DNA of 64,000 nucleotides from Candidatus Latescibacterota bacterium (GCA_965204745.1 OZ242010.1:5376001-5440000); one strand, 5' to 3'. Numbered from the stretch's first letter, positions 56,596-59,974 are shown. Numbers and translations: made by a program. The notes: generated by a model from the sequence alone, not told the origin.

Positions 56596-57414
56596 TAAAT
56601 CCTGCAAATCCTGATCCAGACAAATGACGCAGAGATCGCGGATTGAGGAAGCGCAGGTGGGGCGGAGGGCGCGGGTAACTGTCTGAATCGCGGATTAAAC
56701 GGATTACGCGGATGAACGCGGATTGGGTTGGCAGGTAGGGCAGAGGGCGCAGATGACACAGACGCCGCAAGTAGGGCAGAGGATGTGGATTGGGGAAGCG
56801 CAGGTAGGACAAAGGTCGCAGGTGGTGCGAAGGACATAGCGGGGGCAGGGGGTAGCGGGGTAATCCGTGAAATCCCCAAATCCGCGTAATCCGCGATTCA
56901 GACAAATGACGCAGAGATCGCGAATTGAGGAAGCGCAGGTGGGGCGGAGGGCGCGGGTAACTGTCTGAATCGCGGATTAAACAGATTACGCGGATGAACG
57001 CGGATTGGGTTGGCAGATAGGACAGAGGATATAGCAGACACAGACGCCGCAAGTAGGGCAGAGGACGCGGATTGGGAAAGCGCAGGTAGGACGAAGAATG
57101 CAGAGGGCATGAAGGACATAGCGGATGCGGGGAGTGATGGGTAATCCGCGTAATCTCCTAATCCGCGAAAATCCGTGATTCAGACAAGGGGTGGACGCAG
57201 ATTGGACAGTGCAGGTGGCACGAAAGACACAGCGGGGGCAGGGGGGAGCGGGGTAATCTGTGAAATCCCCAAATCCGCGAAAATCCGCGATTCAGACAAG
57301 GGGCAGAGGACGCGGATTGGACAGTGCAGGTGGTACGAAGGACACAGTGGTTGTGAAGGGCGGCGGGTTTTAATCCGCGTAACCCCCAAATCCGCGTAAT
57401 CCGCGATTCAGACA
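56596..57414. repeat. Tandem array of family D elements (two 282-bp units plus two ~115-bp half units)
   Basis: CAGACAAATGACGC at 56617 and 56899; repeated ends AATCCG(C/T)GATTCAGACA. Confidence 0.9.
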
Positions 57415-57440
57415 ATAGGTTTTTTATATCGGAGGTCAGA

Positions 57441-58223
57441 ATGACATTGAACGAGCGACAGAAGCGATTTTTTTACGAACAGGGTTATCTCAAGGTCGCG
57501 GGCGCGGTGCCGCGCGTGATGGTGGATGCGGCGCGGCAGGCGATCAACGCCGAAATCGGCAAGGGGAATGCCAATCCGTTTGCCGAAATCAACACCGCGC
57601 CGGTCATTGCGGATTTGTTCAATGAAACGCCCGTGTTTTCCCTGCTCGAATCCGCATTGGGAACGGGCAATTTGCAACGTTGTCGAGCGGGCGGCATTAA
57701 GCTCAATTTTCCGCGTCCCCCCGGCAGTTCGGCAGATGTATTGACGCGAGAAATTGGATGGGGCAGAAGTGGTGGGCATCTCGATGGGATCAAGGCCGTG
57801 GGCGACCGGTTGCGCGGGTTGCGCGATGATGGGACGTATAACCGCAATTTTACGTCGTTTGCCGTGGTGTATTTGGACGATGTGCCGGTGCCCAATGGTG
57901 GCAATTTTACCGTGTGGCCCAAGTCGCATCACTTTTTTGAAGATTATTTTCGGGAACACGGGCATCGCGTTTTGGACGATCACATGCCCCATGTCACCTT
58001 GCCCGAAGGCCCGGTCTTCGTGACTGCCGAGGCAGGAGATGTGATTTTTGCCCATCACGCAATGGTGCATACGGGCGGCCCCAACACCTCGCCCAATATC
58101 CGGTACGCGGTGATTTTCAGGGCGAAACACGCGCGGATCGACGACATTGGATTCGACGCGTTCACGGATATATGGCGCGAGTGGGATGGGGTGCGCGAAG
58201 CCGCGGGCATTGGGAAAAGATAA
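57441..58223 (+). CDS. PhyH-like Fe/2OG dioxygenase
   Basis: FYEQGY, HLD, GNFTVWP.SH, GDV...H...VH and IR.AV motifs; SD GGAGG. Confidence 0.85.
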   Translation: MTLNERQKRFFYEQGYLKVAGAVPRVMVDAARQAINAEIGKGNANPFAEINTAPVIADLFNETPVFSLLESALGTGNLQRCRAGGIKLNFPRPPGSSADVLTREIGWGRSGGHLDGIKAVGDRLRGLRDDGTYNRNFTSFAVVYLDDVPVPNGGNFTVWPKSHHFFEDYFREHGHRVLDDHMPHVTLPEGPVFVTAEAGDVIFAHHAMVHTGGPNTSPNIRYAVIFRAKHARIDDIGFDAFTDIWREWDGVREAAGIGKR

Positions 58224-58226
58224 ACG

Positions 58227-58763
58227 ATGCCGCGAAAGATAAGGGCGTTAATCCGACAACTCGAAAAGGCTCAATTCATCAATCGGGGTGGTAAAGGTAG
58301 CCATAGAAATTGCGAAACATCCAAAAGGGTGAAAGTCTTGTCGTTAATTTGTTGGTCATTGTTGATTGTTTGGTGTATGTTTTGTGTCGTATTTGTTCTT
58401 TGAAAAGTGAATCGGGATAGGCCGTTGCTGATAAAGACATGTCTGCGACAGCGACAACCAAGCGGCAGACCTAAAATCTCCTATCAGCGTAAAATCCACA
58501 GGAAGAATAGGAAATAATAGACTATTCACTTGCGCGGCTAGCTTGACCGAGCAAGTAAAAAACGGACGTGGAGGTGCTGTAAGACGGACAAGAGGTTGTA
58601 TGTGCTTGGACGCTGACCCGATGAAGCGTCAATTTCAGTTGGTCAACAATGATCAACAAGAAAGGAGCGGATGCGCGTCACAATTTCTGGCAAACTCGGT
58701 GATGATGCGAAACCCTACCAAGAAAAGGAAGTCAAAAGGAAAATTGAGGAGTCTCAACGATGA
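58227..58763 (+). pseudogene. hicA: HicA toxin split by a ~341-nt insertion
   Basis: MPRKIRALIRQLEKAQFINRGGKGSHRN... (58227-58329) plus MRVTISGKLGDDAKPYQEKEVKRKIEESQR* (58671-58763), overlapping the hicB start. Confidence 0.85.
58330..58670 (+). ncRNA. Candidate structured RNA / non-coding mobile insert
   Basis: 17-bp closing inverted repeat (58349-58365 / 58643-58659) and several internal stems; no long ORF; ends in AAAGGAG-CGG-ATG. Confidence 0.55.
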
Positions 58764-58996
58764 CTGAAAGTGCCCAGTACATCAAAATTGTCGAATGGTC
58801 GGACGAAGACCGATGTTTTATTGGGTATTGTCCGGGCATTATCGGTCCGTGTTGCCACGGGGACAATGAAATCGAAGTCTATCGGGCACTGTGCCAGATT
58901 GTCGATGAGTGGTTGGAAATCGCCCGCCGAGAAAACAAGGCATTGCCGCCCCCAACGATTGGCAGAAACGTCGCCAAATTGTTAATGCCAGCCTAA
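58760..58996 (+). CDS. hicB: HicB-family antitoxin
   Basis: Y..IVEWSDED..FIG..P......HG.....V...L......W........LP.P pattern; directly downstream of hicA. Confidence 0.85.
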   Translation: MTESAQYIKIVEWSDEDRCFIGYCPGIIGPCCHGDNEIEVYRALCQIVDEWLEIARRENKALPPPTIGRNVAKLLMPA

Positions 58997-59086
58997 CCCA
59001 AAAGCCGTAGCGATTGATGGCGCGAGTGGGATGGGGTGCGCGAAGCCGTGGGCATTAATTGTGAACCCTACCAAAAGGAGATCAGC

Positions 59087-59974
59087 ATGAAATCGGCGTC
59101 TGAATTTGATCGGGAACTGCTCGACCTTTACGACGAGTATGTGCATGGGCAAACGGATCGGCGGGGCTTTTTGAATCGCGCTGCGAAATTTGCCGTTGGC
59201 GGTGCGACAGCGGCTTCCATTCTGGACAGCTTGAAACCCAATTACGCGCTCGCCCAGCAAATCGCCACAGATGACGAGCGCATCAATGCGGACCATCGAG
59301 CCTATCCATCGCCAGACGGACACGACGAGACGCGCGGGTATCTCGTCGCGCCGGCGGGAACCGAGGGCAAAGTGCCCGGGGTGGTCGTTCTGCACGAAAA
59401 TCGGGGCTTGAATCCCTATATCGAGGATGTCGCGCGCCGCGTGGCCGTGGCCGGTTTTTTGGCCTTTGCCCCGGACGCGCTGGCGCCTTTGGGCGGATAC
59501 CCCGGCACGGATGACGAAGGGCGGCTCATGCAGCGGCAAGTGGATCGCGACAAGATGATGGCAGATTTTATCGCGGCTGCGCGTTTTGTGCATTCGCACC
59601 CCAAATGCACGGGCAAAGTCGGGGTGGTGGGGTTCTGCTTTGGCGGCGGCATGTCCAACGCGCTCGCGGTGAGCATCCCGGATATTATTGCCGCTGCCGT
59701 GCCCTTTTACGGGCGGCAACCCGCGGCTGAAGACGTGCCGAAAATCAAAGCCGCGTTGCTCATTCACTACGCGGAATTGGACAGGCGCATCAACCGGGGG
59801 TGGCCCGCGTACGAAGCCGCCCTCAAAGAAGCGGGCGTGACTTATACGGCGCACATTTACGAAGGCGTCAACCACGGGTTTCACAACGACACGACGCCGC
59901 GCTATGACGAGGCCGCTGCAAAATTGGCGTGGCAACGCACGATTGACTTTTTCAACGCGACATTGCGGGAGTAG
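59087..59974 (+). CDS. Dienelactone hydrolase family protein (YghX-like)
   Basis: [18 protein letters not shown] and HGFHND motifs; SD AAAGGAG. Confidence 0.92.

Follow-up and report, generated by a model that had tools for sequence, protein, structure and literature searches.

The window analysed in this study is a 64,000-nucleotide stretch of the genome of a Candidatus Latescibacterota bacterium (GCA_965204745.1 OZ242010.1:5376001-5440000). Within it, and all in the same orientation, lie a PhyH-like gene, a HicA toxin gene in two parts and a hicB-like antitoxin gene, with a 341-nt insert between the two parts of hicA (Table 1). The insertion splits the N-terminal 36 codons of the toxin from its C-terminal 30 codons. 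The initial annotation of this DNA had recognised halves of hicA on both sides of the insert, and we confirm this assignment, though the 5' half matches the HicA_toxin profile weakly (14.5 bits, E 0.038, below the cut-off) and the 3' half alone gave no HicA_toxin match in the profile search. The uninterrupted 64-aa orthologue in genome G010 matches over the whole domain (PF07927, 41.3 bits, cut-off 27). The hicB-like gene is intact (UPF0150-like, E 0.01, below the cut-off) and has orthologues in G009, G010, G016 and G018; hicA is missing from the corresponding place in G016 and G018 and is internally deleted in G009, so that the toxin gene is decaying independently in several relatives. A 41-nt direct repeat (58172-58212 and 59017-59057), corresponding to the end of the PhyH-like gene, brackets the whole hicA-hicB cassette, so that the cassette looks like an insertion into the 3' end of that gene. 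Just upstream of the PhyH-like gene there are also intergenic tandem arrays (56606-57415) of two periods, 282 and about 112-115 nt, present in 2.1 and 2.4 copies with 81-86% matches.

Table 1. Features of the interrupted hicA locus, numbered from the first letter of the window
Feature	Position	Strand	Remarks
PhyH-like gene	ends 58223	+	upstream neighbour of hicA
hicA, 5' part	58227..58329	+	extra A in run 58315-58317
Probable mini IS607-family element, protein-less	58330..58670	+	341 nt; one of three ~98% identical genomic copies
Left end	58330..58394	+	TTGTTGG / TTGTTGA repeats, inverted copies of right-end motifs
Middle RNA domain	58395..58534	+	nested stems GCTGATA/TATCAGC and GTCTGC/GCAGAC; protein-less members only
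Predicted omegaRNA scaffold core	58535..58634	+	homologous to last ~130 nt of resident tnpB genes
Right end	58635..58670	+	GTCAACAA / ATCAACAA motifs; terminus GGAGCGG; right GG core 58669-58670
Predicted omegaRNA guide segment (inferred)	58671..58690	+	equals target sequence adjoining GGG in empty allele
hicA, 3' part	58671..58763	+	30-codon ORF; start is hicA's own internal Met codon
hicB-like antitoxin gene	58760..58996	+	intact

Empty hicA alleles, which the initial annotation had proposed to look for, were found twice. The intact G010 orthologue, whose sequence around the site is ...GSHRNYEHPKGMRV..., reads across it as ...GSHRNYEHPKGMRVTISG..., and a natural empty allele is present in the public sequencing run X5, where a 533-nt contig connects 58316 to 58669 with 10 letters between them and represents hicA without the element and without one A. 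Both the G010 alignment and the X5 contig have a single GGG and then ATG at this place, from which we conclude that the insertion is 341 nt long (58330-58670), lies after GGG and ends in GG, with no target duplication apart from the shared GG. The hicA 5' part ends in GGG (58327-58329), which encodes the Gly of the HPKG motif and doubles as the G-rich, TAM-like left flank and GG core of the insertion site. The left flank is ...AAAAGGG and the right end ...GAGCGG; GG is found at both junctions, as annotated, and the insert end AAAGGAGCGG is immediately followed by ATG.

The same comparison separates two lesions that had been taken together. Removal of 342 nt (58329-58670) had been put forward as restoring one 64-aa frame, with the reservation that an extra A might be present. 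The frame does return, because the two lesions sum to 342 (341 + 1), while the insert itself is 341 nt and the suspected A, one surplus A in 58315-58317 by comparison with G010 and X5, is separate from it. Contigs of runs X1 (depth 31.4 of 83.4) and X10 (5.9 of 5.9) have a 1-nt deletion at 58315 relative to the window, and since they carry the insertion and lack the extra A, the insertion came first and the frameshift later. The element starts with TGA, which in alleles lacking the extra A is an in-frame stop right after the hicA Gly codon. On the 5' side of hicA, 11 nt (58305-58315) are 91% complementary to 58678-58688 in the 3' part, just outside the element, which is probably due to chance.

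The architecture described initially for the insert is largely reproduced. The 17-nt inverted repeat is present at 58349-58365 and 58643-58659 (94% complementary) and is subterminal, beginning 20 nt inside the left end and stopping 11 nt before the element ends on the right. The stems AAGTGAAT/ATTCACTT, GCTGATA/TATCAGC and GTCTGC/GCAGAC and the hairpin ACTTGC/GCAAGT are all found in the sequence; the GACGCT/AGCGTC hairpin is also there, in competition with a longer-range pairing between AGCGTC and an upstream GACGT that is preferred by RNAalifold. The predicted fold of the insert RNA has an energy of -112.1 kcal/mol, as against -96.2 +/- 5.6 for shuffled sequences (z -2.84). No protein-coding ORF was found in or beside the copies of the element, and a promoter and terminator scan of 58200-58800 found nothing.

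A search of the same genome with 58329-58670 gave 14 matches, so that the other copies on which the initial annotation had made its reading depend do exist. Three are full-length, namely the window copy, L002 and L003 (98-100% in the search, 340-341 nt, pairwise identity 97.9-98.2%), and two of these young copies, L002 and L003, are intergenic. Three further matches (L004-L006), covering query positions 52-306/307 at 81-87%, belong to older protein-less relatives of 485-487 nt, and two others (L007 and L008) are shorter, 5'-truncated members of this older group. Four matches of 74-75 nt (L009-L012) fall at the 3' ends of tnpB genes. The remaining two are a 26-nt match to a CRISPR spacer (L013) and a 36-nt match to another mini family's left end (L014). 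The 342-nt query had no match in 60 other genomes, ranging from the same genus to the same class, and conserved patterns of the element gave 0 matches in genome_contigs and 0 in JGI metagenome contigs (two patterns).

Natural samples add to this picture. Of 18 listed public runs, 11, from four studies and in several cases labelled sponge metagenome, contain at least a fifth of the sampled words of the stretch. In run X2, contigs pass from the right end of the element into other sequence, which points to further insertion sites in natural populations. The CRISPR array of the genome (C1:1458657-1472744, partly in L013) has 194 repeats of 37 nt and 193 spacers, one of which (L013 1500-1535) matches the last 26 nt of the right end exactly. 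The next 9 nt of this spacer are a flank absent from the whole genome, which suggests that the spacer was acquired from a young-subfamily copy at another site, perhaps on invading DNA. For the other spacers, no match elsewhere in the genome is longer than 18 nt.

The four short matches lead to the origin of the 3' part of the insert. The ORFs of L009-L012, of ~409 aa, are TnpB by their Pfam domains (OrfB_IS605, Cas12f1-like_TNB and HTH_OrfB_IS605), and L009, whose protein was the one compared with NCBIfam, reaches 264 bits on guided_TnpB (cut-off 100). All four resident tnpB genes give a tblastn match over their full length in one stretch, and D182, E275 and D357, at the catalytic D, E and D columns, are invariant in an alignment of 19 sequences. 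Relatives of the L009 TnpB at 72-97% identity occur in ENA assemblies only. Positions 58535-58670 of the insert align with the last ~130 nt of these four genes and with the DNA onward to their right ends, and the plus frame of the insert retains a decayed TnpB C-terminus (ORF 58543-58767). The GAGCGG terminus is found in 12/12 family members, beyond which the flanks diverge completely, the right flanks being different in all 12 copies. What had been read as the insert's own RBS (AAAGGAG) is this conserved right-end terminus, present whatever the downstream sequence and not specific to the hicA site, and we do not read it as a means of producing the second half of the toxin. The ATG that follows it belongs to hicA, since an internal Met codon is present in the uninterrupted G010 gene.

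This 3' module is also conserved in structure. Among the 12 genomic members, RNAalifold predicts 23 pairs, of which 7 show compensatory changes; one such case is the hairpin CAAG...CTTG, which reads CACG...CGTG in the tnpB copies and CTGAC...GTCAG in L006. A covariance model of the module (R2; match threshold E up to 0.01) matches 17 of 80 distant tnpB loci; each hit lies on the strand of tnpB and overlaps the end of the tnpB match. Over these 17 loci, 16/23 pairs are compensatory and 89.6% of cells are paired, as against 70.1% in shuffles (0/500 reach it), in an alignment fitted to the R2 structure, which favours pairing; in a slid-partner control on the same loci 26-46% of cells are paired. 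A search by eye for a pseudoknot between the loop of the first scaffold hairpin and the GGAGCGG terminus gave no pairing consistent across members.

The position of 58535-58670, its conservation and its variable downstream flank are as expected of a TnpB omegaRNA scaffold: it overlaps the tnpB 3' end, reaches the right end and has a structure supported by covariation. In published TnpB biology the guide lies directly 3' of the right end, as described in the available part of the work on the IS607-family CboIStron (10.1101/2023.11.20.567912), and by analogy we infer that the guide would be the about 16-20 nt from 58671. The last ~10 nt apart, the 36 nt that separate the scaffold core from the guide are unlike their counterparts in the tnpB-bearing elements, so that recognition by TnpB could be impaired.

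The middle RNA domain, of about 130-140 nt, has a different distribution. Among seven copies, 11 of its 25 predicted pairs are compensatory, and a covariance model of the domain (R1) finds in the genome the eight known copies and one weak extra match; the four tnpB elements and 31 other loci gave no match. A global alignment with the tnpB coding region gave weak similarity only, which we judged uninformative. The middle domain is without counterpart in known omegaRNAs or in the resident tnpB-bearing relatives. Covariation, which the initial annotation had named as a check on its reading, supports several stems in both RNA modules, and these compensatory changes argue for selection on structure after the loss of the protein genes. 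The weak R1 match (C1:483165-483277, minus strand, L121, 37 bits, E 6.5e-4) lies in another small element which shares the hairpin, T-run, TTGTTCTTTGACAAG layout, has a different downstream RNA, and is bracketed by GC-rich palindromic repeats.

We then consider which transposase family the ends belong to. No Y1 (HUH) transposase was found in this genome by a search that gave matches in control genomes. There are six serine-recombinase genes (L015-L020), each followed by tnpB and three of the six without internal stops; the one recombinase scanned scores 169.8 bits on the NCBIfam equivalog transpos_IS607 (cut-off 110). These loci form a family that we call IS607-A, with six copies of ~1.8 kb, 81-86% identical, in which the serine-recombinase gene is overlapped by a TnpB-like gene of ~520-550 aa (guided_TnpB 100.6 bits, cut-off 100). 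No serine recombinase was found in this genome beside L009-L012 or any other member of the lineage that would supply the omegaRNA. In other species, relatives of the L009 TnpB are found at 45-49% identity in several MAGs and at 30-40% in many other taxa, and at their loci the ORF ending at the tnpB start is a Resolvase in 24/25 cases, many with a MerR HTH; the 25 are all those among the 80 loci returned in which a plus-strand ORF, 174-268 aa long, runs up to the start of tnpB. Among the ten closest loci, all five tested have a Resolvase upstream of tnpB.

The junctions point to the same family. All 10 members with an intact left end lie directly after GGG, with a purine before it, and all 12 members end in GG at the right junction. 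In IS607-A the left junctions are AGG in 6/6 copies and the right junctions ...CAGG in 4/6, L015 having ...CAGA and L018 ...CTGA. For an IS607-family element, the available part of the CboIStron report (10.1101/2023.11.20.567912) gives a strict GG core dinucleotide with a TGGG target/TAM, scarless excision via a double-stranded circle, inverted motifs of 6-7 bp in either end, and overlap of the omegaRNA with the right end. The GG/GGG junctions of the insert agree with this GG core and G-rich TAM and so fit the IS607 rule: there is a GG core on both sides, a scarless empty site and no target duplication. Short inverted motifs are also present, TTGTTGG / TTGTTGA on the left and GTCAACAA / ATCAACAA on the right.

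Taken together, we put at about 85% the probability that the insert is a non-autonomous, protein-less mini derivative of an IS607 transposon (TnpA_S + TnpB) which retains both ends and an omegaRNA scaffold and has an extra RNA domain. Of the interpretations offered by the initial annotation, that of a mobile element holds in so far as the insert is non-autonomous, RNA-encoding, multi-copy and polymorphic; its affinity to IS110 does not hold, the homologues being tnpB 3' ends. By analogy with studied elements, a resident IS607 TnpA_S would move the element in trans, by way of a double-stranded circle and a GG crossover, recognising the short inverted motifs of the TTGTTGA/TCAACAA type that each end contains. 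The element may be transcribed in the direction of hicA, either by read-through from hicA or from a putative internal promoter. The RNA would be trimmed to the scaffold with some 16-20 nt of adjacent hicA sequence and loaded onto TnpB supplied by the four tnpB-only elements (L009-L012). The TnpB-RNA complex would then cut copies of the site that lack the element, at RGGG followed by a match to the guide (the sequence from 58671), and recombination involving a sister chromosome that has kept the element would copy it back. Cutting of empty alleles by TnpB with recombinational restoration is described for IS605 and IS607 in the available parts of two reports (PMC10055086; 10.1101/2023.11.20.567912).

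How the young copies acquired their ends is a further question within the IS607 reading. The older protein-less relatives are 77-90% identical to each other and differ from the young copies mainly at the ends; between a young copy and L004, segment identity is 97% in the scaffold core and 82% in the middle module. The left end of the young copies has no counterpart in the older protein-less lineage and matches that of the second mini family at 86% identity over 36 nt. Their right end shares with those of IS607-A the motif TCAACA(A)GAAAGG, of which the genome has 12 occurrences, in the 3 young copies, in 8 right ends of the IS607-A type and in 1 CRISPR spacer. The second protein-less mini family, of about 400 nt, is represented at C1:1109987 (plus strand; L014 about 1490-1882) and C1:2785620 (minus strand); it has a left end like that of the hicA insert and the right end of the resident IS607 copies (...GGTCAACAGAAAAGGAACAGG), lies after GG-rich flanks, and has two more right ends of its type at C1:756110 and C1:3120969.

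On these comparisons of sequence, we hypothesize that the young subfamily consists of recognition ends of the IS607-A type joined to the guide-RNA module of the other lineage. The similarity of the ends to the resident IS607 copies is confined to short motifs and stretches of about 20-36 nt, and because it is so limited, mobilisation in trans by the IS607-A enzyme has the standing of a hypothesis. It is conceivable, and we propose it tentatively as the less probable course, that the young copies are natural hybrids exploiting elements of two unrelated lineages, with the middle domain as a new accessory module for making, stabilising or switching guide RNA independently of tnpB mRNA. In such a hybrid the closing stem of the middle domain would compete with the first scaffold hairpin, allowing switching.

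Other readings of the insert have to be weighed against that of a mini IS607 derivative. The one that survives best, which we nevertheless consider unlikely, is that a tnpB insertion sequence has left it behind as a dead relic of deletion, that is, repeated and immobile DNA whose RNA has no present function. The element encodes neither transposase nor TnpB, some of its older relatives are 5'-truncated, and the family is absent from the 60 related genomes searched, all of which would suit a relic. Against this, the three ~98% identical copies occupy sites with no relation to one another, natural samples are polymorphic for the insertion (and include the X2 contigs that leave the right end into other sequence), both RNA modules have compensatory base changes, and the genome holds three stop-free serine-recombinase frames and four full-length tnpB genes (tblastn).

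Far less probable is a mini IStron-like or other self-splicing intron that would leave the hicA mRNA, an option of the initial annotation that did not stand. Within the IS607 family, IStrons are known in which splice sites and transposon ends coincide (10.1101/2023.11.20.567912, available part), and the element does lie in sense orientation inside a gene. However, comparison with Rfam, the group I intron included, gave no family at the element up to an E of 10, nor on related copies (seven loci) at E up to 0.1, and the scan of 57900-59100 gave three chance-level snoRNA / lncRNA matches, far below gathering scores. The 5' exon would end in G, where that of group I introns usually ends in U, and the other two of the three copies are intergenic. 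Furthermore, splicing would not restore hicA, because of the frameshift caused by the extra A.

A bridge-RNA module of the IS110 type without its recombinase, or a cis-regulatory switch gating toxin translation through the RBS-like end, would accord with a structured, ORF-less insert that has AAAGGAG just before an ATG, and we give both very little credence: the homologues are tnpB 3' ends and not IS110 left ends, no ORF lies in or beside the copies, a search for matches between element and flanking target gave one shared 7-mer versus 1.29 expected from shuffled sequence, the RBS-like terminus is common to all 12 members, the ATG is the internal Met of hicA, and a toxin-gating role is made unlikely by the unrelated sites, the polymorphic insertion and the second lesion in hicA.

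Compared with known systems, the mini IS607 derivative shares features with several and coincides with none of the following. With IS607-family transposons (e.g. CboIStron / IS607), as the available part of 10.1101/2023.11.20.567912 describes them, it has in common GG at both junctions, a GGG-ending motif 5' of the left end, short inverted end motifs, the lack of a target duplication, and an RNA running from the tnpB 3' end to the right end. Unlike them, it is without tnpA, tnpB and group I intron, is 341 nt long and has an extra RNA domain, and in contrast to the published TGGG, the base before GGG is a purine in 10/10 sites here. The same report describes, in the part available, a laboratory 'mini-IS' in which about 40 bp of the left end and 60 bp of the right end sufficed for excision by CboTnpA_S. 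Ends and mobilisation in trans are the common ground, and this minimum is compatible with the 65-nt and 36-nt ends plus adjoining scaffold seen here, whereas the hicA insert is natural and would be chimeric between two resident lineages.

Protein-less, PATE-like derivatives of IS200/IS605 'often encode omegaRNAs', with TnpB needed in trans, according to the available part of PMC10055086. They likewise encode no proteins, keep ends and a guide-RNA scaffold and borrow transposase and nuclease in trans, but they are mobilised in single-stranded form by a hairpin-recognising Y1 (HUH) transposase, while in the present genome there is no Y1 and the junctions follow the GG rule of serine recombinases. 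Classical bacterial MITEs are also short, non-coding and multi-copy, with inverted sequence at the ends, and interrupt genes; the hicA insert differs from them in having no target-site duplication, a subterminal repeat and a conserved, functional-looking RNA interior rather than filler. In titles and abstract openings, a partial coverage of the literature that is not proof of absence, we found no description of natural protein-less IS607 derivatives with an omegaRNA.

In conclusion, this locus documents the step-wise decay of a hicA toxin gene next to a retained hicB, and the insert within it would be a natural IS607-type mini element which has lost both proteins and has kept the guide-RNA scaffold, the scaffold being apparently still under selection. 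The joining of IS607-A-type ends could, as a hypothesis, explain the recent spread of the young subfamily. If the hybrid ends and the extra domain are as proposed, transposase sites, nuclease guides and RNA accessories would be shuffled between lineages, an illustration of modularity in these elements. The element would also represent a compact natural scaffold variant for trials with its TnpB.
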